Of a DNA stretch of 16,976 nucleotides, positions 1 to 16,634 are shown in pieces. The notes beneath the pieces were generated by a model that was given only the letters and a program-made list of their open reading frames with translations, was not told the DNA's origin and did not search any database. Position numbers and translations under genes: made by a program. This DNA is from a virus (lineage: Duplodnaviria; Heunggongvirae; Uroviricota; Caudoviricetes), in IMG/VR virus record IMGVR_UViG_2913112809_000005, one strand, 5' to 3'. The stretch's first letter is position 1, and every line of letters begins with the position of its first letter.

Positions 1-1047
1 TCAATCAAACCAATTGCTAATTACAGTTTCAAACTTGTGAGTGACTTGCCACCATAAATAATTTTCCATGACAAATTGTTTTCCGTGATGGGCAACACTA
101 AGTAAATCAGGATTGTTAAGTGTTTTTTCTATATCCACAGCAATTGTTTCGGGTGTCATCGGTTCTTGCAGGTGATAGCCAGTATCTTTATCTTTTACAA
201 ATTCTATCATTCCACCTCGAGTACTCACCAGTACAGGTTTACCTGCGCTCATAGCTTCTATTGCCACCATACAAAATGGCTCCTGAAATTGAGATGGAAT
301 AACAACTAAATCAGCTAAAGAATAATATTGATGCATTTCCTCAGGAGTGACACCTCCTAACATATGGCAGTGTGAACCTGGTTGTTTTGCTAATTCTCGA
401 ATTTTCTGTTGGTAAATTCCTTTTTCACCCTTACTTTTGCTCGCATAATCTCCGATAACAACCAGTTCTATATCATCACGGGTTCTGATGAGTAGTTCAA
501 ACGCTTGTAGAAGTAACATCAATCCTTTTTCAGGAGATATCCTTCCCGCATAAAATATAATCTTCTTGTCAGGGGGGATGTTCAGATCAGATCTGTTTAT
601 TTTGGCATGGTGCTTGTCCGTATTATATGGATCTGTTCCATTTGGAACTATAGCGATATCTGCATCAGGAAGAAGCCTTTGATAATAGTCTTTTAAATAG
701 TTACTGGGGACGAGCATTTTGACATTGACATCCATTCCTTTTGGCTCATAAGCGTTATGCATATGCATCACTATTTTTGCATGAGGTGAACGCTCACGAA
801 TCTGGCGATATAATTTCATGCTATTATGCACAACGATTACACTGTTATCCGTAATATTGAAATCGTTAGCGACATTCAAAATTCGTTGAGAATAAGGAAA
901 GGGATCTATACGCGTCAATTTCTGAAATATGCGTTTATAAATTCGACCGAATCCGATGCGATGAATTGAACATCGTTCACTGACAGTGGTGATATCAGAA
1001 TAACCTTCTTCTTTTATACAAACAATTCTATTCGGTATTCTTGTCAT
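1..1047 (-). CDS. Glycosyltransferase, GT-B fold, family 4 (group 1 glycosyltransferase); complete 348-aa ORF
   Basis: 348-aa ORF with stop at 1-3. C-terminal half has the E-x7-E signature of retaining GT4 enzymes (EPFCMVAIEAMSAGKPVL) and a GT-B nucleotide-sugar-binding layout. Gene is visibly AT-rich compared with the adjacent tail cluster. Confidence 0.75.
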   Translation of the reverse strand: MTRIPNRIVCIKEEGYSDITTVSERCSIHRIGFGRIYKRIFQKLTRIDPFPYSQRILNVANDFNITDNSVIVVHNSMKLYRQIRERSPHAKIVMHMHNAYEPKGMDVNVKMLVPSNYLKDYYQRLLPDADIAIVPNGTDPYNTDKHHAKINRSDLNIPPDKKIIFYAGRISPEKGLMLLLQAFELLIRTRDDIELVVIGDYASKSKGEKGIYQQKIRELAKQPGSHCHMLGGVTPEEMHQYYSLADLVVIPSQFQEPFCMVAIEAMSAGKPVLVSTRGGMIEFVKDKDTGYHLQEPMTPETIAVDIEKTLNNPDLLSVAHHGKQFVMENYLWWQVTHKFETVISNWFD

Positions 1048-1492
1048 CTTAGCAACCTGATAAATCCAGGTTTCTACAGCAGCGGCGCAACGTGGAGGAA
1101 TGGAAAAAAATTGGCGTAACAGTGAAAATTATTTTATCAACCATGACGTATTATCCTTTCTTTTATTACCTTACTTTTCCAGAGGAGTGAGGCAGTAAAC
1201 ATGTGGTTTCCTCGCATCGTCTATGAGGGTACCCAAAGGACAAACTATATTTGAAGTGATTTATAACGCAATATATTTATGTTTAAAAATCGCTTCTTAT
1301 TCTTCACGTGAATGTTTTGTTTGGGATAATATTTTTTATAAATACGTTATAGCCTAATTATAAATAGCCAAGCGGAATAGTTCTCCATTTTCGGTCAGCC
1401 CTTTCGGGGTAAGGCGCAGAGGCCATTCTCTCTGTCTGACCGTGCTTGCATCGGGGAGGTGTACATATAAGCTATTTAGAGTATATAAGGAA

Positions 1493-1509
1493 CCGGGCAT
1501 TGTGCCCGG
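1493..1509 (-). terminator. Intrinsic terminator hairpin closing the tail operon
   Basis: Perfect 7-bp GC-rich inverted repeat CCGGGCA-ttg-TGCCCGG, 6 nt downstream (minus strand) of the TAA stop at 1516-1518, followed on the minus strand by a pyrimidine/U-rich stretch (TTCCTTATATACTC). Confidence 0.55.
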
Positions 1510-1515
1510 TGTTAT

Positions 1516-1971
1516 TTACGGATGGGATTGCCAGCTACTTACTAAGGCATACAAGTGATTTGGTGAGTATCGCCAGCTATCTTTTAATTGCAGGAATTCA
1601 GCACAAAACTCACTGCAAAACAGGCGATCGCGCTGTTCTTTATTGCCGGTGATAATTCCTAAGGCTCCGCGCCAGTCATAGCGTTTGCCATCATGTTTAC
1701 GGAAAAAAGCTTCCACATCCTGAAGATTGGCCTGGAGCGGTAGCATATCCCACTTGTCTGGAGGTAATGGCATTATCTTTCCCCGAACGCCTCGATCGCG
1801 CAGAGATGCGGAGTAACAAAGGTAACTCTTTTCGCCATGTACTACGGCTAATTCACAGTGGGAATAACTACCACGTGTGATTTTGCGTGTAAGCCAGTCA
1901 GCCAGTCTCGCAATACCCCGGTGCTCTGTTCGGCCCTTATAACAAGCGAGCCAGACAGTGGTTTTACTCAT
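1516..1971 (-). CDS. YiiX/YaeF-family (DUF830) permuted papain-fold protein, putative amidase/peptidase; no signal peptide
   Basis: 151-aa ORF translationally coupled to the upstream fibre-chaperone gene (4-nt overlap). Has the His-then-Cys permuted order with motifs SYSHCELAV, GKRYDWRGA and LFCSEFCAEF, matching from memory the YSH, KPYDF and CSE motifs of E. coli YiiX/YaeF. Last gene before the operon terminator. Confidence 0.55.
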   Translation of the reverse strand: MSKTTVWLACYKGRTEHRGIARLADWLTRKITRGSYSHCELAVVHGEKSYLCYSASLRDRGVRGKIMPLPPDKWDMLPLQANLQDVEAFFRKHDGKRYDWRGALGIITGNKEQRDRLFCSEFCAEFLQLKDSWRYSPNHLYALVSSWQSHP

Positions 1972-2573
1972 GGTTGCCAGCCTGTGGAGTAATCGTAGTC
2001 GAGCACCGCCTGAATATCGTCCAGAGCTTCCACTGCTGCGATATGGCGCTGGGCGTTGGCGAACAAGCGCATATCGTGATCCATTGTTACCGATTCAAAC
2101 TGGGCAGCGATTTCGTTGGTTAACTCGATCAGACCGTGGTTTTTGGTCTGCCACATTAAACCTGCCGGGATCTGCTTCGCCAGGCCCATTTTGGTTAACG
2201 ACATCTGCTGGATACGGCTGTTTGTATCACTGTGGAAGTGATGGTTATTGATGATGATGTAGTCTACCGTTATTTCATCTCGTCGATTTTTTATTTCCTG
2301 TGTAACCTGGGTCTTGGTATTCTCTAGTGCAATGGTAAATAACGTTTTGTCATATACCCATTTATCATTCTCTAAGATATAAAAGTTATCCGGAGGTGGT
2401 GTGGTGATAATTTTGAATGGGTCAAGACATATCCAGCAGATATTATCCTTTAATTTCCATTGCTCATCATTTACTGGTATTACCGAGTCCAGTAACACAA
2501 CATTTAATAAAGAATCGTCTATCCAGTCAATAACTTCAAAAGTTACTGGATTGTAATATGCATATTGTGTCAT
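1968..2573 (-). CDS. Putative tail-fibre assembly/chaperone protein (position-based call; C-terminal half possibly DUF4376-like)
   Basis: 201-aa ORF starting 4 nt after the tail-fibre stop on the same strand, the canonical position for a fibre chaperone. 5' half is visibly AT-rich and 3' half GC-rich, suggesting mosaic origin. Confidence 0.45.
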   Translation of the reverse strand: MTQYAYYNPVTFEVIDWIDDSLLNVVLLDSVIPVNDEQWKLKDNICWICLDPFKIITTPPPDNFYILENDKWVYDKTLFTIALENTKTQVTQEIKNRRDEITVDYIIINNHHFHSDTNSRIQQMSLTKMGLAKQIPAGLMWQTKNHGLIELTNEIAAQFESVTMDHDMRLFANAQRHIAAVEALDDIQAVLDYDYSTGWQP

Positions 2574-2577
2574 ATTT

Positions 2578-4131
2578 TCACCATGATATTTTTACAAAGC
2601 CATCTGAGCCGCGTCCGCCGGAAAAAGATGCTGATGTTTGATTATTTGCTGCACTACCACCAGCACCACCGGCACCATAACCAACGGCATTACCTCCGTT
2701 AGAAAGGGCTAAACCAATCCCCCCTAGGCCATATAGTGAATTCATTCCATTCCCACCAGGAGCAGAGTGTTGGTCAACCATGGTATTCCCACTACCGTTT
2801 CCACCTGTTCCCCCGTAAGCTACGCTGTCAGCAAATGATGAGTTCCCGCCTTGCATGCCATCTGAGGCATGAACATTCCAAAGAATACCTCCAGTTGATC
2901 CCATCTTTGATTCTAATTTTCCCCCTTGACCACCTACACCTCCCGCTCCGACAGTGACAGCGTAATTTGTTCCTGGAATGACTGTGACTATTGATAATTT
3001 TGTTTCTCCGCATTGACCGCCAAAACCCTGCGTACTATATGGAAAACCAGAGTTGCCTTTTGCGTATCCACCGCCACCGCCACCGCCTCCGCCACCGAGC
3101 ATTTCTATAAAAAGTAAGGACACCCCATCAGGAACAGTAAACGTTCCATTGGTGGTAAAGAACTGGATGTGAGAATTCGTTGACCTACTATATGCAGCAT
3201 TAGCCTTATCTATTGCCGCCTTCACCGCGCTCGGTGTCGCCGCCTCCGTCGTACTGTTGCTATCCGTCGCGTTATTAAGCTTCACAATCCCTTTTTGTGT
3301 CAGGGTACCATCCGGAACACCCGTAATCTGTCCCCAGGGATGCGTATGACTACCCGCAGCTTTACTATTCGCCAGGTCATACGCCGCCTTAACCGCGCTC
3401 GGTGTTGCCGCCTCTGTCGTGCTGTTGCTATTGGTTGCGTTATTAAGCTTCACAATCCCTTTTTGCGTCAGCGTACTATCTGGTATATCAGTAATCTGAC
3501 TCCAGGTATGACGATGATTTCGAGCCTCAATCATTGCCGCTTTCACCGCTTTTGGCGTAGCCGCTTTGGTTTCGTCATCACTGTCAGTGGCGTTACTCAA
3601 CTGTGTAAAGCCTTTTTGCGTTAACGTAGCATCAGGATGATTAGTCGAACGCTCATGTTCATCCAGTTGTGAATCAACATAATCCCGTGTTGCCAGTACA
3701 ATACTGGGGTCAACGGTGAGTGTTACCGCAGCCGTGTTGGACACTTCCATAATGAGACGAATGCAAACTTGCTTACCGCAGCCGCCGGGTAATAGCGGTT
3801 TATACGATTCCGGGAATTTACCGATAGCGATCAATTCACCATCAGTATCATAAACGCCAACTTCACGTACATACCAGCCGCCGATATTTTCGGGCAGCAC
3901 GAGTTCCGCAATTAACCAGTTAGGGTTATTTGGTGCAACTGTTAATGTATTTAAATCACCGCGCCATACTTCATGGCGTAATTTAGTTTGGCTGACGGTG
4001 GGTTCATAATATTGTCCTCCGCTGTCGCCAACAGCCATTTTTTGTAGATGAAGCTGTTTTTTATCCGCCAGAGCATTGGCAATTTTTGCCATTCCCCTGT
4101 CGGTGAGTAGAGTATAAAACTCATTATCCAT
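2578..4131 (-). CDS. Tail fibre protein (P2 gpH-like N-terminal baseplate-attachment domain, tandem fibre repeats, glycine-rich C-terminal tip)
   Basis: 517-aa ORF. N-terminus (MAVGDSGGQYYEP...HEVWRGDL...IAELVLPENIGGWYVREVGVYD...ESYKP) matches the conserved P2 gpH / Mu S N-terminal domain. Three tandem repeats of TLTQKG(I/F)..L.NAT.S...EAATP.AVKAA follow. C-terminal about 180 aa is extremely Gly-rich, including a run of 10 Gly. Confidence 0.85.
   Translation of the reverse strand: MDNEFYTLLTDRGMAKIANALADKKQLHLQKMAVGDSGGQYYEPTVSQTKLRHEVWRGDLNTLTVAPNNPNWLIAELVLPENIGGWYVREVGVYDTDGELIAIGKFPESYKPLLPGGCGKQVCIRLIMEVSNTAAVTLTVDPSIVLATRDYVDSQLDEHERSTNHPDATLTQKGFTQLSNATDSDDETKAATPKAVKAAMIEARNHRHTWSQITDIPDSTLTQKGIVKLNNATNSNSTTEAATPSAVKAAYDLANSKAAGSHTHPWGQITGVPDGTLTQKGIVKLNNATDSNSTTEAATPSAVKAAIDKANAAYSRSTNSHIQFFTTNGTFTVPDGVSLLFIEMLGGGGGGGGGGYAKGNSGFPYSTQGFGGQCGETKLSIVTVIPGTNYAVTVGAGGVGGQGGKLESKMGSTGGILWNVHASDGMQGGNSSFADSVAYGGTGGNGSGNTMVDQHSAPGGNGMNSLYGLGGIGLALSNGGNAVGYGAGGAGGSAANNQTSASFSGGRGSDGFVKISW
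3068..3097 (-). repeat. Imperfect hexanucleotide (GGTGGC/CCGCCA)n tract encoding a Gly10 run inside the tail fibre gene
   Basis: Plus strand reads ccaccgccaccgccaccgcctccgccaccg; on the coding strand this is GGT GGC GGA GGC GGT GGC GGT GGC GGT GGA. Confidence 0.8.
3185..3640 (-). repeat. Three tandem, diverged 150-170 bp repeats inside the tail fibre gene (phage tail-fibre repeat units)
   Basis: Near-identical DNA blocks are visible (e.g. ccgcgctcggtgtcgccgcctccgtcgt...ttattaagcttcacaatccctttttgtgtcag versus ccgcgctcggtgttgccgcctctgtcgt...ttattaagcttcacaatccctttttgcgtcag). The protein shows three copies of the TLTQKG...EAATPSAVKAA unit. Confidence 0.8.
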
Positions 4132-4133
4132 AA

Positions 4134-4781
4134 TTACTCCGGGTAAATAGATGTAATTTCAAGGCTCCATTGCCCTGTTCCGTAATAAATCGATGTGTTG
4201 TGCTGTACTTCCCGTATCTGGAAAGGTAAAACCGTCGTCAGTTCACCACCATAAAGTGCACAGCCAATAACAGGAATAGCACTTTGGTTAATGATCCAGA
4301 CGATTAATGCTTCCAGTTTTGAACGTGTGTTTTTATATTCATGAATGAGTTCTACCAAATCATTGAAAAGGTTTTCATCCATACCTTTATCCACCAGCTC
4401 TATATCCACCTTAAAAAAATAAGCCCTTCCCCCATATTCAAACCATTCTGAAATAGTTCCGGGTAATGAGAGTATTTCCAGCACCCGCCGCACCGCCCAA
4501 ATTGTTCCTTTATATTTATGCAGTTCAATGGCTTGTTTAATTAACTCGCGTTTCTCCCGCTCATCGGTGGTAAATAACCAACCTTCCAGCCCCTGAACGT
4601 GAAATTGTTCTGCAAGGGCTGGTAATGCCGAAGCATCAACCAGGTCGACCAGATAAACCATCAACGCCGTCAGATCGAGTTGGGCAAAACGCTCGGCGGC
4701 GATGTTTGCCAGAATGGAAAAACGCTCATCGCTGGCAAGCGGCGGCGGTGGCAGCAATTTATCCATCGCTGACTCCGGCAA
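4134..4781 (-). CDS. Baseplate protein, P2 gpI family (Mu gp48-like)
   Basis: 215-aa ORF with the characteristic N-terminal LLPPP..S....LA motif of gpI-family proteins; sits between gpJ and the tail fibre. True start may be the internal Met at about 4766 (MDKLLPPPP), which would remove the overlap with gpJ. Confidence 0.8.
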   Translation of the reverse strand: MPESAMDKLLPPPPLASDERFSILANIAAERFAQLDLTALMVYLVDLVDASALPALAEQFHVQGLEGWLFTTDEREKRELIKQAIELHKYKGTIWAVRRVLEILSLPGTISEWFEYGGRAYFFKVDIELVDKGMDENLFNDLVELIHEYKNTRSKLEALIVWIINQSAIPVIGCALYGGELTTVLPFQIREVQHNTSIYYGTGQWSLEITSIYPE

Positions 4782-5874
4782 TCGTGACGTCTATTGCGGT
4801 GCATTCCGCCCACTCATGCGCCTGCAAAATACGTTTTGTAGGCATATTCAGCGCAACGTCATAGACGCCATCGACCTGTAACACTTTGATTATCTGGTTT
4901 GGCACAATGTCCTGCCCCAGATGTTTCTGCCGCTGTTGCGTCCAGAGGCTAATCGCTTTACGCGCCGCAGCCAGCGTTGTCTCCTGATCGGCGGTGGTAA
5001 ACAGCATTAGCTGCGCACGGATCTCATACGGCACTCGAAGAGCGCATTTCGCACTCACTTTGTCGGTCAGCGGACGTTTTTTCTCCTTGCTAACCTCCTG
5101 TTCAATTTGCGCGAGCAGTTCCACTCCCGGCAGACCATTCAGCGTTAGCGGGTAGATCTCCACGCAGCCTTCTGGCAATCCCTCGTCCGGCCCCAGTACT
5201 GAAACGTCAATAATCGACTGGCTAACAGAAAGCGTATGGAAGCGGTATGCGCCATAGCTGCCCGCATTACTAAAGCTTTCTGGTGCCAGTTGGATACGCT
5301 GGCGCAATGCGTCATCGCTCTCTTCACCGCAGCCGCCCGTTGACGCAGTCAGGTTGGTTACGTTGATGTCATAATGACCAATCCTGTCGACCAGTGCGCT
5401 AATTTGTGCAGGCTGCCAGCCGTTACCCTGTTCACCTGCTGCGAGGCTGGTGGCAGGAACGGCGATATGCAAACTCCTGGCCGGAAGCAGAACATCTTCA
5501 TCGGTGGCGAACATCACGCTATCAGAGGCACTGGCCCGCGTCCCCTGGGGAATCAGGATATTGCTGGTATACGCACTGACGACCGAAAACTGCAACGTCG
5601 TTTTTGCCGGTTGTGCAGGCAAACGGTGAACGCCCACCAGCTCCCCTAAATAATCCAGCATTGGCGCGCGGGAATACGCGACCAGGTTTTGTTTCGCCGC
5701 TTCCTGAATGGCGATGCGTACAAGGTTTTCACGATAGGCAAACAGGTCGATGAGCAACCGCTCAGCCTGTGCAGGATAGAGTTTTTTACCGCTGGCATCT
5801 TCGTATTGCGCAATCATCTCACTGGTAATTTGCGCTGGATCGCGGTCAATAAAATTGGGTTCGGCTATCGCCAT
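4759..5874 (-). CDS. Baseplate protein, gpJ family (Mu gp47-like, T4 gp6-like wedge)
   Basis: 371-aa ORF in the conserved position between gpW and gpI; size and order match Baseplate_J proteins; overlaps both neighbours in the operon. Confidence 0.8.
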   Translation of the reverse strand: MAIAEPNFIDRDPAQITSEMIAQYEDASGKKLYPAQAERLLIDLFAYRENLVRIAIQEAAKQNLVAYSRAPMLDYLGELVGVHRLPAQPAKTTLQFSVVSAYTSNILIPQGTRASASDSVMFATDEDVLLPARSLHIAVPATSLAAGEQGNGWQPAQISALVDRIGHYDINVTNLTASTGGCGEESDDALRQRIQLAPESFSNAGSYGAYRFHTLSVSQSIIDVSVLGPDEGLPEGCVEIYPLTLNGLPGVELLAQIEQEVSKEKKRPLTDKVSAKCALRVPYEIRAQLMLFTTADQETTLAAARKAISLWTQQRQKHLGQDIVPNQIIKVLQVDGVYDVALNMPTKRILQAHEWAECTAIDVTIAGVSDG

Positions 5875-6224
5875 AACACCTCCGTTGAGTTGATTACGCC
5901 GTCAGCGGCGCGCCATTGCACACGTAACGTCAGATGTTCACCGTCGATTACAGGTGTCACCTTCAGCAACCGACAGCGCGGTTCCCACTGGCGAATGGCT
6001 TCCACCGACTCCCGTACCACATGCGGGATTGCCCGCTCGATGGGGTAATCGATGTAGTGCCACAAATTGCTGCCAAACAGCGGTCTGTGGGGATCACTGC
6101 CGCGCGGTGTACGCAGAATGATGTGTATTGCCTGGTGAATATCATCCAGTCCGCAGACGTATTTTTCAGGCCGCTGCAAGGCCGGTTGCCAGTGCAGCGT
6201 TGAGGGTCGTGTTTTTGTGTTCAT
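5865..6224 (-). CDS. Baseplate protein, GPW/gp25 family
   Basis: 119-aa ORF of the size and position of P2 gpW / T4 gp25 / Mu gp46 homologues, between the spike and gpJ. Confidence 0.75.
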   Translation of the reverse strand: MNTKTRPSTLHWQPALQRPEKYVCGLDDIHQAIHIILRTPRGSDPHRPLFGSNLWHYIDYPIERAIPHVVRESVEAIRQWEPRCRLLKVTPVIDGEHLTLRVQWRAADGVINSTEVLWR

Positions 6225-8274: not shown

Positions 8275-9224
8275 CAGCTCCTCGTAATGGTCGCGGCAGC
8301 AAACTGGCTCACTGTGGGAGTGGTTTGTTGTACCGTTGTTCGTGCCTGATCAACCAACGTTGCGGCTTTATCGAACGTCGCTTGGGCGATGCCGCTGGTA
8401 ATGTCGTCGAAAAGCGCCTGAGCATGGTCAACCAGCGTACTGGCGTCATTGGCGCAGTCCCGGATACCTGGCATGTTACCCAGTAAAGCTTTAATCTGCG
8501 CCGACAACGCTTTTGGGAGTCCTGCCAGCGTTTGCAGATCCGTTGGCTGTTTAAACAGGGTTTCGATGGCGTCGATTGTCTTTTTCAATGACGTAATTAT
8601 CTTTTCACACTTTTCTTTTAACGCTTTGGCCTCTTTAATCATTGCTTTCACTTTTGCCACCGTTTTTTTAATATCTTCAATGGCTTGTGTCAGTTCATCC
8701 AGCATCTCTTTGGCCTTACGCATACCTTCTTCAATGGCGTTTAATATCTGATCAAACCAGGACTCCACCATGTCGGGAAAATTGCTCGCCTTTTCCTCAA
8801 TGTTAGGCTCCTGGGTGGTAATCGCCGGAGGTAAAAGTGGATTTTTAGGATCGCCGGTGTACTCCTGGAGCGACATCGTTCCGTTTTGGGCAATCACATT
8901 GCCCCAGGGATCGGTGTGCTGGTGGGTGGCGGTTAGCTCTGTAATTACAAACCAGCCGCGATAATCGCCATTGCCAAATACCAGTGCCATCGCCTTGTGA
9001 GCAAGCATGGCTTCACGCAGTCGATTCAGCTCTGTTGTGGGCTGGCAAAACTGGCTGTGCAGGGAAAATTCCAGCGCCAGTATATCCAGCTTATCGCCAA
9101 TAAACTGCACGCCGGGCTTGCCTTCTATACGGGCATGTGTGGCGTAATCCACGCCCATTGTGCTTTTAAAGCCGTCCCAGAATGTGACAACCTTAAATTC
9201 AATCTCTCCTAAAACGGCATACAT
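8271..9224 (-). CDS. gpU-like tail protein with a roughly 175-aa C-terminal alpha-helical/coiled-coil extension
   Basis: 317-aa ORF. First about 140 aa follow the P2 gpU pattern (M..LG...F......F..........G.P..QF.G...D...L...L......L..L...........G.G...G.FVITEL). The remainder is Lys/Glu/Ala-rich with heptad-like periodicity (KAKEMLDELTQAIEDIKKTVAKVKAMIKEAKALKEKCEKI...). Stop/start overlaps the tape measure gene. Confidence 0.7.
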   Translation of the reverse strand: MYAVLGEIEFKVVTFWDGFKSTMGVDYATHARIEGKPGVQFIGDKLDILALEFSLHSQFCQPTTELNRLREAMLAHKAMALVFGNGDYRGWFVITELTATHQHTDPWGNVIAQNGTMSLQEYTGDPKNPLLPPAITTQEPNIEEKASNFPDMVESWFDQILNAIEEGMRKAKEMLDELTQAIEDIKKTVAKVKAMIKEAKALKEKCEKIITSLKKTIDAIETLFKQPTDLQTLAGLPKALSAQIKALLGNMPGIRDCANDASTLVDHAQALFDDITSGIAQATFDKAATLVDQARTTVQQTTPTVSQFAAATITRSW

Positions 9225-11584
9225 CAGGCATACCCCCGGCGCTGTTGTTGCGCCATTACGTCGTTAATTATTCTTTCCAGTTCGCGTTTACTCATCGTCA
9301 ACACGTTCTGAATCTCTTTAGTATTGTTTGGTCCGTTACCCTGCACGGTAATCTGTGGCGAAAAAGTCACCTGGACTTTTCCAGGGGAACGGGAGGGTAG
9401 CGTCGCCGGTTTGGTTACGGATTTATCTGGTAAAGAGGTCGACGCGAGTTTTGCGGCAGGCACTGATGACGGCGTTGTCGTTTTGCTGGATGGCGCGAGT
9501 TGTTTCCCCACTGGAGGCGTTAAAATCGCACCGGCAACGCCTGGAACAACGGTCGCGGGGGAGACTGAGGCAGAATTAGTGGTGCCTGTAGCAGCCGCAG
9601 CCGATCCTTCTGTGCTGATACCCATTGTGGATTTTAGCCAGTCTGGTATGGCGTTTTTGACCTGGTCAATAATGCCTTTCAGAGCGGGAAAAGCATTCAT
9701 TATGCCGTCAGCCAGGCTACCCAGTATATTGCTGCCGAACTCGCTAAAACTCGCAGGCATCTCAACACCAAACCAATTCATCACTCCGGCAAAGGCGCTG
9801 TAGAACAGCCCCAGTGGCGACCAGTCGCAAATCAAACGGCTAATACCAGCAATACCGCCATTAAAGGCCGTTGTGATACGCAGCCAGATGGCGGAAAAGA
9901 ACCTGGAGATAGGTTCCCAGTTGCGATAAATCAGATAAGCAGCGCCCGCAATCGCAGTGATGACCAGACCAATGGGATTCATCAATAACACCCGGCCTAG
10001 CGAGAGAACGGTTCGACCAACCAGTTTCAATGCTCCGAGCAGGCTACGACCAAGCAGTTGCGTTAGCCATTTTGCGCCGCCACCCAATGACTTAACCGCC
10101 GATAACACCTTACTCGCTGCGCCGCCGAGCGCCAGACTTGCCCTGACTTTCAGGAAGATATCGACCAGACGAATTAACGGCGAGGCGATGAAGTTCGCGC
10201 CCAGCTTTAAAACATTCAGCGCGCCGTTAAACAGCCAAATCGCCCCGACGATTTTCGCAATGTTTTGCACCAGCGCCGGGTGTTCACGTAGCCATGCGCT
10301 GAACTGGCGAACAACCGGAGTAAGGCTTTGCGCCAGCTCGCCAATCAGCGGCATTAATTGCAAGCCAATGCTGAGCCATAAATCATTTAACGCCAGCTGT
10401 AACGCTTTAGTTTGTTCAATGGGCGAGGCCATCTGCGCAGAAAAGTCAGCGTCAATCAGATTCTTACTGCTGGCTTGCATGGCAGAGGCTTTTAACTGGC
10501 GATATTCCTCCATATTCGCCAGCACAGGTGCCAGGAATTCCACTGTTTGCGCATCGCCGAACATTTCGCCCAGATTAAACTGCGTCACCATCGATTGCAG
10601 CGCAGTGCTGCGAGCAGATAAATCTTCAATCTTCATGGTGCGTTTGAAGGTGTCGAGGATCGCCGGATTCATCTTCTCAAGCTGCATTTGCACGATATGA
10701 GTCATGGCTTCGCTAACACCCATACCGTTTTGCTGATGCTCAAGCAGAGAACCTTGCAGATCAACGCCCTGGCTGGCGAACCAGTTATCGGTTTTTTTCG
10801 AAAAGGTGGTTTGCAGAAAGTGGTCGAAATTCTCCGCCGCCGCACTGGCACTGGCCCCGTTTTTTATGGCGATCTGCATGGTGGCGGTCAGTTCAGCCAT
10901 ACCTTCCAGACCCTGAGCGCCGATTTTACCTGCAAATTTCTCTATCCACTGCGTTTGTTCGGCAACGGCAGGCCCACCGCTTTTGCTAATGCCATACATC
11001 ATGTTTTGCGCGGCGTGGAAATTTTCTGGGGCAATATTCAGTCGATCATGAGTCGCGAGCGCGGCATTCGCCCACGTTTCAGCACTTTCGCGCGTGGCGG
11101 TGGCAGCTTTGGCGATCTCCGGCATATAACGGTTGAGATCCTGCATCGACGACAAATTGCCTTCGATCAGCGTTTGGGCTGCGTTCTGTAAGGTGGTCTG
11201 CTGCTGGTTAAAATCCATGCTCCAGCCGCGCAGATTAAGGCTGAGCGTCTCGCGGGTTGTAGCATTCATCCCACCTTTGGTCGCCATATTGACCATGTTG
11301 TCCTGGAACTCATATGGCAACTTCCAGTCGGGGGCTTCAACATTGAATACCTTGCTAAATTGCCCGGCAAATGTTTGGGTTTTCTCCATTAGATCAGCGC
11401 GGTTCCGGCTATTTTCCTCCAGGCGGAGAGCAGAATCGGCAAGTTGCTGCGTTAGTTTGATTACTGTCGCTTGCTGAGAAGAGAGAGCTAACAAAGTTCT
11501 GGCGTTGAGTGAGCCGTAACGGGCTATTGCCTGCGTCAACGTCTCATTACGCGCCTGAAGCTGGGTAATAATATCGTTGGCCAA
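9224..11584 (-). CDS. Tail tape measure protein
   Basis: 786-aa ORF, largely alpha-helical with internal hydrophobic segments, between the chaperone gene and gpU as in all long-tailed phages. Apparent initiator is TTG at 11584; the first in-frame ATG is about 66 codons in, so the exact start is uncertain. Confidence 0.85.
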   Translation of the reverse strand: MANDIITQLQARNETLTQAIARYGSLNARTLLALSSQQATVIKLTQQLADSALRLEENSRNRADLMEKTQTFAGQFSKVFNVEAPDWKLPYEFQDNMVNMATKGGMNATTRETLSLNLRGWSMDFNQQQTTLQNAAQTLIEGNLSSMQDLNRYMPEIAKAATATRESAETWANAALATHDRLNIAPENFHAAQNMMYGISKSGGPAVAEQTQWIEKFAGKIGAQGLEGMAELTATMQIAIKNGASASAAAENFDHFLQTTFSKKTDNWFASQGVDLQGSLLEHQQNGMGVSEAMTHIVQMQLEKMNPAILDTFKRTMKIEDLSARSTALQSMVTQFNLGEMFGDAQTVEFLAPVLANMEEYRQLKASAMQASSKNLIDADFSAQMASPIEQTKALQLALNDLWLSIGLQLMPLIGELAQSLTPVVRQFSAWLREHPALVQNIAKIVGAIWLFNGALNVLKLGANFIASPLIRLVDIFLKVRASLALGGAASKVLSAVKSLGGGAKWLTQLLGRSLLGALKLVGRTVLSLGRVLLMNPIGLVITAIAGAAYLIYRNWEPISRFFSAIWLRITTAFNGGIAGISRLICDWSPLGLFYSAFAGVMNWFGVEMPASFSEFGSNILGSLADGIMNAFPALKGIIDQVKNAIPDWLKSTMGISTEGSAAAATGTTNSASVSPATVVPGVAGAILTPPVGKQLAPSSKTTTPSSVPAAKLASTSLPDKSVTKPATLPSRSPGKVQVTFSPQITVQGNGPNNTKEIQNVLTMSKRELERIINDVMAQQQRRGYA

Positions 11585-11675
11585 AATTGTTTCTCTTTAA
11601 TTATTGATAATGGCCCACTGGTTATTTTTCTAAAAAAGGGGCTGGGAAGAAATAAACCTGGCGGGCTTTGAAGAA

Positions 11676-11698
11676 CTCGCAGACATCAGGTCTGCGAG
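11676..11698 (-). other. Strong stem-loop in the gpE-tape measure intergenic region
   Basis: Perfect 9-bp inverted repeat CTCGCAGAC-atcag-GTCTGCGAG; on the minus strand it encloses the stop codon (11686-11688) of the +1 frame that overlaps the 3' end of the gpE gene. Confidence 0.6.
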
Positions 11699-11773
11699 CC
11701 ATATTCGATCTTTATTTGGTCGCTGGCTTCATCCAGCCAGTTGCTAAAGTCATCTATGGTGAGCGCGTCTATC

Positions 11774-12091
11774 TCACTGGGTGGAAAGCGAAACCATCTC
11801 GCCAGTAGCGCCATTGCCTGCCATAGCTGGGGAGGATTCTGTAACCACGGTAAGCATGGATTGAAATCGTTTCTGCAATGCCTGGTAATCCAGCAAATCC
11901 ATTTCAGCTAAATCTTCTGGCACCAGTCCGGTCATCGCCGCCATTAGCGGTTCATCCCACTCTTCGGGTTTTTCGCTGATCCGGCGCGCGTTGCGCATAT
12001 CTTTTACTTTCAGGCGACGTAATTGCAGCGAGTCGATAGTATTTCCTGCTGCCGACGTAAATGGGAACTGTAAGATATAATGCTCTTTCAT
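11774..12091 (-). CDS. Tail assembly chaperone, P2 gpE family
   Basis: 105-aa acidic ORF between the tube and tape measure genes, the conserved position of the frameshifted chaperone pair. An alternative reading frame stays open past its stop (see findings). Confidence 0.7.
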   Translation of the reverse strand: MKEHYILQFPFTSAAGNTIDSLQLRRLKVKDMRNARRISEKPEEWDEPLMAAMTGLVPEDLAEMDLLDYQALQKRFQSMLTVVTESSPAMAGNGATGEMVSLSTQ

Positions 12092-12665: not shown

Positions 12666-14095
12666 TAGCTATTGCTCTCCAGAGAGACTAAATATTCAGA
12701 AGTAATTTCAGTTTCAAACGTCAGACGTTCCAGCGGCGGCGGCGGGGTGAATTTATAGCTCAGCAATAAATGACCGGCGCTGAGTTCAGCCGGTGAATTT
12801 CGTGCCGGATCGTACCAGCACTCAAAGCCAAGCAGTGCGCCGTCGGCAATTAGTTTTCGGCCCCAGGTATTTACCGATTCGGTCAGTGCGTCAATAATTG
12901 CCTGATTAATAGGCATATCAATATACTGCTGACTGAAATAACGGATTGACTCATTGATTACATCGCCTGTCCGGCGGACGTTTTCAAAGTTACGCATATG
13001 GGTCACGGTAGGCCATGCCGCTGTGCGGTTACCCCACAAGCGCAGACCAGAACCGTAACTATTGAAAATAGTGGTAATGCCGTTTTCGTTGAGCTGATTC
13101 ACTTCGCTTTGTGGATCATCAATCATTGCGGAAAGCGAACGTTCAATACCGGTAATACCCTGAATTTCCTGGTTTGAGTTGCTCCACCAGAAACCTTTTT
13201 CGAGGTCTACTTTGGCACGTAGCCCGGCAGCGCGCGAAGAGAGTGGTTCGAGAACTTCCTGGTTAGTGATGCCATCGTAAACTTTGACGTGTGGGTAACA
13301 TAAACGCACACGATCAGAGCTGGTATTGAAGTTGATAGCCCCTTGCGAACCGCGTCCAGCCAATACCTGCTGGAATGTCGTCCCAATCGGAGCATCAATG
13401 TAGGTAATCGCACCGAGTTTTTCCGCTTGTGCAATCAGCTCAGTAGTTACTGATTTTTGCGTACAAAACACGGGAGCAAGCAGGATTTTGGCGTAGAAAC
13501 CGTACAGGTTATAGGTGTCCTGAAGGAGTTTCATCCCCGTGCGGTCGCCTGCGGTATTTAGGGCACCGATAATATCGGCTGCGGTGACCTTTGTAGGGTC
13601 GCACCAGGAATAATAGGCGCAAACTTTCGCTCCAGGAGGAATGTCGGCTCCTTTACGAGTGATTATGCCTGTTTGTTCATCTACGCTAAATGCTGTGGTG
13701 TTAAAGGTTGATGAATTTGATGAAGAGGGCTTTAGTACCACGTTACGCACATTGCGGTGAGCGAGCTTCGCCTGGTTGTTAGCATCAAAAGTGATACTCT
13801 CATTGCTGATGCTGGAGCTATGTTTTGCCGGATCCAGCACGTTAATCACCACCACCGTACCGGCACCGTGGTCATAAATCGCCTTCAGTGCCTGTGGGAT
13901 CGTAAAGTTAGCCAGAGTCGAGCCAAACTGCGCAGCATCGCTTTCAGAAAGACATAATGTTGGTTTATTTACCGGACCACAGGGGGCCGTACCGATTAAA
14001 GCGATGACGGCGGATTTTACCGCTTTAACCGGACGAGGGCCGGTTTCAATTTCAATGGTTTCTACACCGTGCAGGTAATTAGCTGCCATGTACAA
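12665..14095 (-). CDS. Contractile tail sheath protein
   Basis: 476-aa ORF directly upstream of the tube gene; size and position are typical of myovirus sheath proteins (P2 FI / Mu L class). Confidence 0.85.
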   Translation of the reverse strand: MYMAANYLHGVETIEIETGPRPVKAVKSAVIALIGTAPCGPVNKPTLCLSESDAAQFGSTLANFTIPQALKAIYDHGAGTVVVINVLDPAKHSSSISNESITFDANNQAKLAHRNVRNVVLKPSSSNSSTFNTTAFSVDEQTGIITRKGADIPPGAKVCAYYSWCDPTKVTAADIIGALNTAGDRTGMKLLQDTYNLYGFYAKILLAPVFCTQKSVTTELIAQAEKLGAITYIDAPIGTTFQQVLAGRGSQGAINFNTSSDRVRLCYPHVKVYDGITNQEVLEPLSSRAAGLRAKVDLEKGFWWSNSNQEIQGITGIERSLSAMIDDPQSEVNQLNENGITTIFNSYGSGLRLWGNRTAAWPTVTHMRNFENVRRTGDVINESIRYFSQQYIDMPINQAIIDALTESVNTWGRKLIADGALLGFECWYDPARNSPAELSAGHLLLSYKFTPPPPLERLTFETEITSEYLVSLESNS

Positions 14096-14276
14096 TTTCC
14101 TCTACGTTATTTTGTTCTTCCTGAGTGATGACAGGAGTCAGATGATTGCGGGCAATCATGGTTATGACCCACTCGTTGTCTTCTGGCAGATCAATTTCAC
14201 TGTTCGGCCACAATAAGATTTCTTGTCCGTCGGCAAGGGTGACGCCGCTTGCCGGGCCGTTGTAGATGTATTTCAT
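14079..14276 (-). CDS. Small conserved tail-region protein (Mu gp38-like position)
   Basis: 65-aa ORF, coupled by a 4-nt overlap to the upstream gene and overlapping the sheath start. Confidence 0.45.
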   Translation of the reverse strand: MKYIYNGPASGVTLADGQEILLWPNSEIDLPEDNEWVITMIARNHLTPVITQEEQNNVEEIVHGS

Positions 14277-14874: not shown

Positions 14875-15189
14875 TTAATAGCTGCCACGTTGTAACAGCT
14901 CGATTTTGCTATATAAGGCATCCAGCTTTGCTTCTAATACTGCTTGCCCACGAAGATAATCTTCTCTGCGGACATAATGCAGCGGAAGCTCGGCACGAAA
15001 TTCAAGAAACTCTCTTTCCAGTTTCGACCAACTTGTTTCTGATTCCCTGCGGGCATTTTCCAGAGACTCAAAACGCTCATTAAGTCGTTTTTCAATTTGC
15101 GCTAACAGCAGTTTTCCGGCAGCAAACATTAATCCAACGAAGGAAAGCATAAGGGAGATCACTTCCCAAAAATCGATACTGAGTTTCAT
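14875..15189 (-). CDS. Membrane-anchored coiled-coil protein, candidate spanin-like/lysis accessory protein
   Basis: 104-aa ORF with one N-terminal hydrophobic helix (FWEVISLMLSFVGLMFAAGKLLL) followed by a charged helical region; GAGGGG RBS; directly downstream of the lysin gene. Confidence 0.45.
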   Translation of the reverse strand: MKLSIDFWEVISLMLSFVGLMFAAGKLLLAQIEKRLNERFESLENARRESETSWSKLEREFLEFRAELPLHYVRREDYLRGQAVLEAKLDALYSKIELLQRGSY

Positions 15190-15201: not shown

Positions 15202-15807
15202 TTAGTGAAGACAGCTTGCCTGTCCCCAGAGTAAATAGCGGGCGGCGTGTAGATAGAGGATCATCTTTGGATAGCGACGATTTTCTCGCCAGTTAGCAGC
15301 GCTGCGCCCGGCGTTGACTCGCTCGACATGACCAAACCAGCTAGTGGCATCTAACCCTTTGGATGCAGCTAGTTTTTTATCCCGGTTAACCCACCCCTGA
15401 CCGCCGTTATAGGCGCTTAGGGTAAACGCCATACGCTGACAGTCATTTTTCGCAGAGATGTTTTTCCACAAATGCTGGTCATATTGCACCAGCGCGCGAA
15501 TCGCCCAGGTTGGGTTATACGGTTTGTTTTCACGCAATTGTGGATACAACTGGCTTATCCATGTCGCTGTAGCAGGCATAAATTGCGCCATACCTTGTGC
15601 GCCAACGGGGGAACGTACCATTGGCTGCCAGGCGGACTCCAGGTGTAATTGCCCGGCAAAGTCGGCCACTGGGGCATTCAGCCCCCAGACTTCTCGAGCG
15701 GTACGAATTAGTTCGTTTCGCCATGCCAGAGAGGCTCGCGGCGGTTCAGAGGCGTTAAGCGGGAAAAGAACGAAAATAATCATAGACGCGATATATTTCA
15801 GCCACAT
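15202..15807 (-). CDS. Lytic transglycosylase (SLT domain) lysin with N-terminal signal/SAR-like hydrophobic leader
   Basis: SLT catalytic motifs LHLESAWQP and AQGMAQFMP. Best start is ATG at 15807 (MWLKYIASMIIFVLFPLNA...), 2 nt after the stop of the upstream membrane-protein gene; the longer ORF to 15885 would overlap that gene by 76 nt. Confidence 0.7.
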   Translation of the reverse strand: MWLKYIASMIIFVLFPLNASEPPRASLAWRNELIRTAREVWGLNAPVADFAGQLHLESAWQPMVRSPVGAQGMAQFMPATATWISQLYPQLRENKPYNPTWAIRALVQYDQHLWKNISAKNDCQRMAFTLSAYNGGQGWVNRDKKLAASKGLDATSWFGHVERVNAGRSAANWRENRRYPKMILYLHAARYLLWGQASCLH

Positions 15808-15809
15808 CA

Positions 15810-16097
15810 CTATAGCCCTAAGGCGACGGAAAGACAGACGGCGGCAACGATGATGGCGCGGCGAATCATTGCCGCCGCGCAGCAACGCGGTTCCTTCCAG
15901 GGGCTAAAAGAGTCAGGCCGTGCCCAGGGGAACAAACTGCGATCGAGCCAGTATCCCAGCACCGCGGAAAGCGAAACCAGGCTTAGTTTATAAATGACGA
16001 CCGGGATCTGTGCTGAAGAGGTCCAGCCGATCACGACAAACAGCGCGACGGAAGCGACCAGCCAGCCGGAAAGCCGGGGAAAAGTGACTTTTTTCAT
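15810..16097 (-). CDS. Small membrane protein with 2-3 transmembrane segments, holin candidate
   Basis: 95-aa ORF with AGGAG RBS 8 nt upstream of the ATG; hydrophobic segments LVASVALFVVIGW, IPVVIYKLSLVSLSAVLGYWL and AIIVAAVCLSVALGL; first gene of the lysis cassette, directly before the lysin. Confidence 0.5.
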   Translation of the reverse strand: MKKVTFPRLSGWLVASVALFVVIGWTSSAQIPVVIYKLSLVSLSAVLGYWLDRSLFPWARPDSFSPWKEPRCCAAAMIRRAIIVAAVCLSVALGL

Positions 16098-16393
16098 ACG
16101 ATATCTCCTGATAAGTGAGCGTTTAGTGTCGTCAGAACCCTCCAGTGAAGAATGAAAAAAGCTTTAATAAATAAGTTTAAAAAATAGATTCTCTATAAAT
16201 GAACAAGCCCGCTAATAAATCGACTCATCAATTAAAGAGCAAAAGGTGACCTGGCGAATAAGCGCGTCATTATGCAGGGGAAAGATGATGGTGGATCGTA
16301 GGAATAGTCTATAGTTATTTGATTTTTAAAGTTTGTTTAAGAAAGTCAGCTACTGTGAGGGAAACGATCTTTTAACACTACAGGTAAAAATAA

Positions 16394-16413
16394 TACTGTA
16401 TACGTATACAGTA
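16394..16413. promoter_or_regulatory. LexA (SOS) box, near consensus
   Basis: TACTGTATACGTATACAGTA, a perfect CTGT-N8-ACAG palindrome matching the gammaproteobacterial LexA consensus TACTGTATATATATACAGTA at 18 of 20 positions. Lies in the divergent intergenic region; a TTGACA hexamer sits 21 bp to its right (16435-16440) and a TATTAT hexamer overlaps its left end on the minus strand. Confidence 0.7.
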
Positions 16414-16634
16414 TAGTGTAAAATGATACTCCTGTTGACAAGAAACATAATGCAAACAATATATTTATTTCGTGAATTTATGGCGTTCATTAATACTAAA
16501 AATTTATATTTTGGGTGATTATTTATTTGTTTGTTGAATGTATTGAGTAGCAGTAATGACAACTGCTTAGCGTATATCCGTGGTTTTACACGCATCGGGT
16601 CTTATTCAGGATGCAAGATATATGGAGATGAAAA

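Follow-up and report, generated by a model that had tools for sequence, protein, structure and literature searches.

The gene at the end of the tail operon

A small gene in a 16,976-nucleotide (nt) stretch of viral DNA (Caudoviricetes, IMG/VR virus record IMGVR_UViG_2913112809_000005; hereafter the window, meaning the whole stretch) is the subject of this analysis. The gene (positions 1516–1971, minus strand) encodes a protein of 151 amino acids (aa; 17.6 kDa) and is the last of a tail operon, located after the genes of a tail fibre and its chaperone and before a hairpin (Table 1). Its translation exhibits two short motifs, SYSHCE (Y36-S37-H38) and LFCSEFCAEF (C119-S120-E121), with the His preceding the Cys by 81 residues. 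A preliminary description, made from the sequence, had pointed out this open reading frame (ORF), its place in the operon, the His-then-Cys order and the YSH and CSE signatures, all of which we find as described, and had proposed a cargo protein of the DUF830 (YiiX/YaeF) permuted papain type. Our analysis suggests that the protein is a remote member of the YaeF/YiiX clade of permuted NlpC/P60 enzymes, and we consider it fairly probable that it is an active enzyme acting as an accessory third member of the tail-fibre module.

The ATG of the enzyme gene shares 4 nt with the TGA of the 201-aa ORF upstream, in agreement with the earlier observation, and this overlap suggests translational coupling of the chaperone and enzyme genes. 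No promoter-like site was found on the coding strand within positions 1000–2700, the single site of this kind being located on the other strand. The hairpin just past the stop codon is likely to be the operon terminator and the end of the conserved cluster: its RNA fold reaches -16.7 kcal/mol (z-score of -4.6 against shuffled sequences, coding strand), and the similarity to the E. coli reference cluster ends at position 1493. The terminator consensus scan reported it on the plus strand only, since the U-tract of the minus strand lacks one T to reach the threshold. The N-terminus of the protein is non-hydrophobic and no membrane-spanning segment is present (maximal 19-residue Kyte-Doolittle mean of 0.47), thus the former attribute "cytoplasmic-type" is reasonable; nor does the sequence contain a signal peptide, a lipobox or a secretion-associated domain.

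The first search retrieved 63 homologs at E≤1e-3, and an exhaustive profile search of 1.84 billion representatives yielded 4,686 clusters (50% identity) with E≤1e-3, of which 1,988 had E≤1e-10, with nearly all family members comprising 130–180 aa. The ratio of nonsynonymous to synonymous substitution rates (dN/dS) is 0.06–0.09 against orthologs with unsaturated dS. The homolog counts and the low dN/dS exclude a chance ORF; this is a genuine gene under strong purifying selection. Domain fusions were sought among the top 150 representatives and the top 120 matches of the second search, all of which turned out to be stand-alone proteins of ~130–180 aa with no Pfam domain. Longer enzyme ORFs in the surveyed loci (see below) were rejected as fusions, being start-codon artefacts. 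A separate case is a single 340-aa ORF in a metagenome-assembled genome (MAG) of an uncultured Kingella (L124, 7506–8528), in which a DUF4376 segment and the enzyme domain share one frame; this may be a genuine fusion, in favour of the two parts cooperating physically, or the result of a frameshift error in the MAG, and it is not used as evidence here.

Fold, family and putative active site

The enzyme protein shows no match in Pfam (E≤1), NCBIfam or PADLOC, 50 of its relatives gave nothing relevant in Pfam even at E≤10, and a single-sequence search of the PDB sequences returned noise only. Neither the window protein nor the 50 relatives reach the gathering threshold (27 bits) of Pfam PF05708 (Peptidase_C92, formerly DUF830), to which E. 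coli YiiX, used as a positive control, scores 167.8 bits. Thus, the search against Pfam DUF830 that had been suggested as a check gave no match at threshold, and the DUF830 signature stands as a remote homology, revealed by profiles and by hhalign comparison to YiiX, but not as a match to the Pfam model.

Two family profiles, one comprising 50 relatives and the other a broader set of 80 sequences, were searched against the PDB sequences. Below E 0.4 the former identified only 3kw0 (BcPPNE from Bacillus cereus, E 2.4e-4) and 2if6 (E. coli YiiX, E 0.16), and the latter repeated this outcome, the E-value of 2if6 ranging over both profiles from 0.025 to 0.16. The alignments centre on the YSH, Y-D and CSE motifs. 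The hhalign comparison with YiiX matched His38 with His49, Tyr98 (GKRYDW) with Tyr115 (GKPYDF) and Cys119 (LFCSE) with Cys128 (QYCSE), i.e. the Cys/His dyad and the NlpC/P60 signature tyrosine occupy alignment positions equivalent to those of the residues named as catalytic in YiiX by Xu et al. 2011 (PMC3142127). Protein gp28 of the Alteromonas phage vB_AmeM_PT11-V22 (hereafter V22) serves as a bridge between the two groups: it matches the enzyme family with an hhalign probability of 97.7% (E 1.6e-12) and the Peptidase_C92 model with 19.8 bits (E 9e-4), under the cut-off.

The AlphaFold model made on the 50-sequence alignment (pLDDT 83.5, pTM 0.80) predicts that His38 opens a strand and that Cys119 is located at the N-terminus of a helix, likewise the position of the catalytic Cys154 of BcPPNE (PMC3142127). 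The predicted structure therefore displays what defines the YaeF/YiiX clade according to Xu et al. 2011, namely a circularly permuted papain-like alpha/beta core with a His N-terminal to the Cys and a Cys at a helix N-terminus, and it bears out the permuted order anticipated in the preliminary description. Fold matches of the enzyme in BFVD are all uncharacterised phage proteins. Among 80 representatives, 27–56% identical to the query, the residues H38, E40, W74, Y98 and C119 are invariant. Sequence and model together indicate that the family is a remote branch of the YaeF/YiiX clade of permuted NlpC/P60 enzymes, and the prediction of the fold and of an enzyme, taken alone, is one that we make with high confidence.

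The window enzyme is only 19–20% identical to YiiX and BcPPNE. YiiX possesses a Sec-type signal (N-terminus MKNRLLILSLLVSVPAFA), whereas the window enzyme has no signal and is ~50 residues shorter; moreover, YiiX and BcPPNE are encoded by chromosomal genes of the housekeeping type, while the window enzyme is encoded in a phage tail-fibre module. The crystal structure of YiiX contains a fatty acid in the hydrophobic S1 pocket and that of BcPPNE a lysine in S1' (PMC3142127).

In PHROGs the enzyme falls into phrog_1128 (E 6e-58), named "enoyl-CoA hydratase/carnithine racemase-like". The same name is borne by gp51 of the Mu-like Haemophilus phage SuMu, ORF70 of the Pasteurella phage Pm86 and ORF176 of the Ralstonia jumbo phage RP12 (Table 1) as well as by several Pasteurellaceae proteins in GenBank, and could be taken to mean that these are metabolic enzymes of the enoyl-CoA hydratase/carnitine racemase type. 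Such a function has in our opinion a negligible probability: the enzyme family shows neither an ECH match in Pfam nor a crotonase-fold match, and the assignment to the permuted NlpC/P60 fold contradicts the label, which appears to be a propagated annotation error.

The order fibre, chaperone, enzyme in other phages

A scan of IMG/VR identified at least 540 viral contigs with confirmed relatives of the enzyme, and a scan of one genome per species with a narrow pattern identified 182 confirmed relatives, in Enterobacterales, Pasteurellaceae, Neisseriaceae and Moraxellaceae. For a survey of gene order, ORFs were called in the best 80 loci of each set, and the start codons for the overlap counts were set by profile alignment. 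Most loci exhibit a fibre-sized gene (300–1,300 aa), a gene of 160–270 aa and the enzyme gene, in this order, with the enzyme gene directly 3' of the fibre gene and the chaperone-sized gene in about 85% of 157 loci. The question raised earlier, whether homologs elsewhere are fibre-adjacent, can thus be answered in the affirmative. The unique upstream neighbours contain DUF4376 in 40 of 65 cases and Caudo_TAP in 16 of 65, and in the two locus sets at least 57 of 65 and 46 of 62 upstream neighbours match tail or tail-fibre-assembly PHROGs. Since these neighbours fall into at least three sequence classes, the enzyme is linked to fibre chaperones generally and not to one domain. The start and stop codons overlap, by any length, in 111 of the 157 loci (71%); in the viral contigs the overlap is of 4 nt in 52 of 78 loci and of some length in 62 of 78, while the 79 genome loci include 19 with an overlap of -4, 18 with -8 and 7 with -11.

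The trio is found in phages of diverse types: as gp49, gp50 and gp51 in SuMu, preceding the tape measure gene in Pm86, in the Moraxella phage Mcat7, after K, I and J in a lambda-like contig, and as fibre gp26, chaperone gp27 and enzyme gp28 in the myovirus V22. A P2-like contig has the enzyme gene placed precisely between its fibre module and its sheath gene. In the Acidovorax phage AP1 the trio is followed by a holin and a lysozyme gene, and in the P. stutzeri phage pAN by the gene of a lysis protein. Two loci of Serratia microhaemolytica (L029, 3364–7867; L091, 5364–9867) display the order chaperone, fibre, chaperone, enzyme, second fibre, which may represent a dual or alternative fibre system. 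Across many phage lineages the enzyme gene thus recurs at the 3' side of the fibre-chaperone module, and the earlier opinion that it is foreign to a normal tail finds no support.

The downstream neighbours are not conserved and comprise sheath, DNA methylase, holin-like proteins, a second fibre and host genes on the opposite strand; a conserved downstream partner, e.g. an immunity protein, was found in none of the surveyed loci. The cases of AP1 and pAN, in which lysis genes follow directly, allow a different role to be considered, that of a lipid or lipoprotein hydrolase that reaches the envelope after the holin fires and helps to dismantle it or stops the particles from sticking to debris; its chemistry would be, for example, the cutting of acyl or Lys-linked amide bonds, which agrees with the ligands seen in the S1 and S1' sites of YiiX and BcPPNE. 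Genes of GH19 and GH108 enzymes are next in two metagenomic contigs, holin-like membrane proteins are next in some loci of Neisseriaceae and Pasteurellaceae, and no spanin was identified in the window. However, the lysis genes of the window are situated at the far end of the cluster, 13 kb away, SuMu, Pm86, V22 and the P2-like contig have non-lysis genes downstream, and the conserved link is that with the upstream chaperone and not with the downstream gene. The adjacency could be accounted for by the common phage layout in which lysis genes follow tail genes, and we consider such a function in particle release unlikely.

Resident or passenger of a headless tail cluster

The fibre gene is preceded on the same strand by the genes gpI, gpJ, gpW, gpV, gpD, X, U, tape measure, tail assembly chaperone, tube and sheath, and the cluster contains also a Gp37-family protein, an SLT transglycosylase, a holin and, at the window edge, a divergently oriented gene of a Mor activator. 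The window is devoid of genes for capsid, terminase, replication or integrase and by its gene content looks like a headless contractile-tail cluster of the R-type tailocin kind. The genes that have been kept are those for making and releasing tails. A syntenic cluster in E. coli 2021CK-01784 (NZ_CP104371) is bounded by lysC and by a slipin/nucleotidyltransferase pair. In the literature searched no paper describes the R-type tailocin-like locus of the window; the "tailocin" of E. coli ST131 (PMC9205054) is a different, pyocin R2-like cluster, and the paper does not mention the enzyme gene. A possibly homologous Salmonella locus (STM42xx) appears in the searched literature in incidental mentions only, and no account of it was retrieved.

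The GC content of the enzyme gene (0.49–0.51) resembles that of the tail core (0.54–0.55 in gpJ, positions 4600–6000) and is unlike that of the foreign left flank (0.35–0.39); the half of the chaperone gene that encodes its N-terminal part has 0.35. Among 5,426 complete E. coli genomes, the baseplate genes of the cluster are present in 195 and the enzyme gene in 196. E. coli clusters thus essentially always keep the enzyme gene; the absence from homologous clusters that had been named as part of a refuting observation is not seen. The identity to the E. coli reference cluster is 92–98% for most tail genes, 90% for the sheath, 88% for the enzyme gene and 87% for the chaperone gene, and the fibre tip, encoded by positions 2620–3213, shows no homology to this cluster. 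Many other E. coli genomes match the window over positions 1493–2295 only, i.e. the enzyme gene and the DUF4376 domain. These boundaries, together with a GC content of 0.35–0.41 in between, suggest a swappable specificity cassette at about 2296–3213, composed of the fibre tip and the N-terminal half of the chaperone. The enzyme gene lies just outside the cassette and stays constant through the swaps; therefore it does not track receptor specificity.

These data bear on the cargo framing of the preliminary description, according to which the gene would be an independent moron (toxin, immunity, superinfection-exclusion or anti-phage factor) inserted in a hot spot after the fibre-assembly gene and benefiting the host or lysogen. 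P2-like phages carry accessory genes after the fibre chaperone (the Z/fun region of P2), and the slot of the enzyme gene matches this site, as does its place in the P2-like contig; the category of phrog_1128 is "moron, auxiliary metabolic gene and host takeover", the relatives TseH and Tox-Act1 are toxins, and the enzyme is dispensable for the function of the V22 fibre and absent from phage A5 (see below). The features by which phage morons are recognised (own promoter and terminator, atypical composition, patchy presence) are nevertheless lacking: no promoter-like site of its own precedes the gene, its composition is that of the tail core and it is retained in the headless E. coli clusters. 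In addition, the start/stop overlap with the chaperone gene prevails, the upstream partner is of a type that recurs over four bacterial families and several tail types while the downstream neighbours vary, no small immunity-like partner is conserved nearby, the protein carries no secretion-associated features, and the defence models of PADLOC-DB 2.0 gave no family at E≤0.01. An independent moron is accordingly an improbable explanation, and toxin, immunity and anti-phage cargo are less likely among the functions suggested earlier.

Proposed chemistry and role

To our knowledge, the characterised permuted NlpC/P60 enzymes all handle fatty-acyl bonds, those of the PLAAT and LRAT groups acting as phospholipase/acyltransferases. 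In S. aureus, the N-acylation of lipoproteins requires LnsA (PMC7387801), Tox-Act1 is a phospholipase and TseH exhibits phospholipase activity (PMC12994826). By homology, the most likely chemistry of the window enzyme is that of an acyl-bond hydrolase or transferase. The enzyme would be made in the cytoplasm, without an export signal, from a gene presumably transcribed late along with those of the tail, its translation being coupled to that of the chaperone. An acyl-thioester would be formed on Cys119, with His38 as the base and Tyr98 as an oxyanion or positioning residue, followed by hydrolysis or transfer of the fatty-acyl bond (amide, ester or thioester). Its possible targets include the fibre-chaperone complex or an envelope lipid or lipoprotein that the particle encounters during assembly, release or adsorption. 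The role would serve the tail particle rather than DNA-related functions or the fitness of the lysogen. We favour such a generic service because of the coupling to the chaperone, the retention in a cluster devoted to making tails and to lysis, and the independence from the specificity of the fibre tip.

Several observations weigh against an active enzyme that belongs functionally to the fibre module. Gene order alone can mean a shared recombination cassette and not a shared function, and the enzyme is conserved while the fibre tips and the N-terminal halves of the chaperone are exchanged. In 23 of the 157 loci (about 15%) no close same-strand ORF is found upstream, and RP12 is the one clear exception seen among the annotated phages, its homolog standing alone among hypothetical genes, away from the annotated tail genes. 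The fibre gp26 and chaperone gp27 of V22, co-expressed recombinantly on their own, bind host cells (PMC7289586), and phage A5 has the V22 fibre and chaperone but no homolog of gp28 (PMC10579305). Since gp27 suffices and A5 does without gp28, the enzyme is unneeded for fibre folding and receptor binding in the V22 and A5 systems; the published work thus weakens an essential fibre-folding role, one of the functions that could be envisaged from the preliminary description, and the role of the enzyme appears to be helpful, not indispensable.

A further point against it is that Glu64, the third polar triad residue of YiiX and BcPPNE, which orients the His, is not conserved and aligns with Ala55 or Tyr53 of the window enzyme. 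The protein could consequently be regarded as an inactive scaffold that has kept the fold and serves, without catalysis, as a partner of chaperone or fibre in binding or assembly, and the translational coupling to the chaperone gene would suit such a stoichiometric partner. We find this very unlikely, because His38, Tyr98 and Cys119 are invariant in representatives that have otherwise diverged to 27–56% identity, a pattern expected for catalysis, and because enzymes of the LRAT type do not depend on a strict third residue (Xu et al. 2011, PMC3142127). A third triad residue, if used, would have to come from another place, and the alignment offers the invariant Glu40 and the near-invariant Ser56 or Asp59, located on the same or a paired strand, as candidates.

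A bolder version of the role in the particle can be imagined, in which the enzyme binds the Tfa/DUF4376 chaperone co-translationally, rides on the fibre tip or baseplate and cuts a fatty-acyl bond in the outer membrane of the target; lipid A, a lipoprotein or a phospholipid would be the substrate, and the enzyme would be the tail counterpart of TseH and Tox-Act1, effectors of type VI secretion (T6SS). Mature V22 fibres do not contain the chaperone, and binding takes place without the enzyme, both of which speak against this scenario, and we rate it as quite doubtful. No virion or tailocin proteome covering the enzyme was found in the literature searched, and the SuMu proteomics paper does not mention gp51. 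An accessory enzyme serving the fibre module, made alongside the chaperone, is the interpretation that we favour.

Other features of the window

The features of the window and the homologs that carry the hydratase label are collected in Table 1. Proteins with DUF4376 have been characterised experimentally as fibre chaperones in the Alteromonas phages V22 and A5 (PMC7289586, PMC10579305); the N-terminal half of the window chaperone is variable, and its coding region is low in GC (0.35 at 2201–2600). The fibre has a collar-fibre domain at its N-terminus, fibre repeats, and a glycine-rich domain at its C-terminus. The glycine-rich end (C-terminal 190 residues) includes a run of nine glycines at residues about 338–346.

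Table 1. Positions of the features discussed in the text, in the window and in labelled homologous loci.
Feature	Sequence	Position	Strand	Remarks
YiiX-like enzyme gene	window	1516..1971	minus	151 aa, ATG start; predicted permuted NlpC/P60 (YaeF/YiiX-like)
Start/stop overlap of chaperone and enzyme genes	window	1968..1971	minus	ATGA; TCAT on the plus strand
Hairpin past the enzyme-gene stop	window	1492..1510	minus	GC-rich 8-bp stem; likely operon terminator
Tail-fibre chaperone gene	window	1968..2573	minus	201 aa; C-terminal DUF4376 (residues 87–193), Pfam E 1.1e-11; PHROG tail families 1807, 2837
Tail fibre gene	window	2578..4131	minus	517 aa; Phage_tail_fib 7e-61, Phage_fiber_2 4e-55, Gly_rich_2 1.8e-6
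Lysis genes	window	15202-16097		Opposite end of the cluster
Small ORF	window	14079-14276	minus	65 aa; no Pfam match
Small ORF	window	14875-15189	minus	104 aa; no Pfam match
Small ORF	window	16350-16595	minus	81 aa; no Pfam match
GT4-family glycosyltransferase gene	window	1-1047	minus	Complete; Glycos_transf_1 E 3e-38
SuMu gp51	L003	4944-5465		Labelled as hydratase
Pm86 ORF70	L004	5001-5456		Labelled as hydratase
RP12 ORF176	L168	4995-5438		Labelled as hydratase

Neither the 104-aa nor the 81-aa ORF of Table 1 has a match in PADLOC. The 104-aa ORF, a neighbour of the SLT lysin and in E. coli annotated as "membrane protein", may encode the missing component of the lysis system, one of the spanin-like kind. 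P2-like tails encode a frameshifted E+E' product between the tail assembly chaperone and tape measure genes. A gap of 189 bp (11585–11773) separates the tail assembly chaperone ORF (11774–12091) and the tape measure gene (9224–11584) of the window. The left flank (1–1495) is composed of the glycosyltransferase gene and a 450-bp AT-rich spacer, and it has no megablast match in the complete E. coli genomes, while the identity of the tail genes to those of E. coli reaches 98%.

Relationship to known systems and implications

The closest described counterpart of the window enzyme is V22 gp28, a member of the same family encoded in the same gene order with touching start and stop codons. It differs in length (136 aa) and in its motifs, WSHCG and FCYE instead of YSHCE and FCSE, and it comes from a marine myovirus of 93 kb without an annotated integrase in positions 1–45,000, whereas the window is an enterobacterial tail cluster. 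The authors of the V22 genome described gp28 as a "permuted papain-like amidase" and listed it under protein catabolism, unconnected to the fibre module (PMC7289586). TseH, Tox-Act1, LnsA and the mammalian PLAAT/LRAT proteins represent other permuted NlpC/P60 clades with much lower structural scores; their members are secreted or bound to membranes and work with dedicated immunity or partner proteins, and the window enzyme displays none of these features. Chaperones of the Tfa/gp38 type likewise follow fibre genes and are co-inherited with the fibre module, but the window protein has an enzyme fold and is not a chaperone. T5 Llp and phi80 Cor are receptor-blocking lipoproteins encoded next to the genes of receptor-binding proteins; the window enzyme differs from them in having no lipobox or signal peptide and no co-variation with the fibre tip.

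The fold, the clade and the label of V22 gp28 are already known. A search of the literature for PF05708, DUF830, YaeF or permuted papain together with tail fibres retrieved the V22 genome table only, and we found there no account of the large phage subfamily outside the Pfam model, of its systematic placement after the chaperone gene with an overlap, of its retention in a headless tail cluster or of the conclusion that the hydratase label is wrong.

Tail-fibre modules are the parts exchanged to retarget phages and tailocins, and they are usually treated as two genes, a fibre and a chaperone. Our analysis indicates that a third gene, encoding a probable acyl-bond enzyme, accompanies this pair in very many phages, unnamed or misnamed in public databases and with no Pfam model. 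Fibre transplants should include the enzyme gene if the enzyme influences particle yield, stability, adsorption or killing. Should the enzyme prove dispensable, a corrected annotation and a defined family would still be gained. If our proposal is true, it would provide the first biological context for the obscure YaeF/YiiX clade that can be tested by simple phage genetics.

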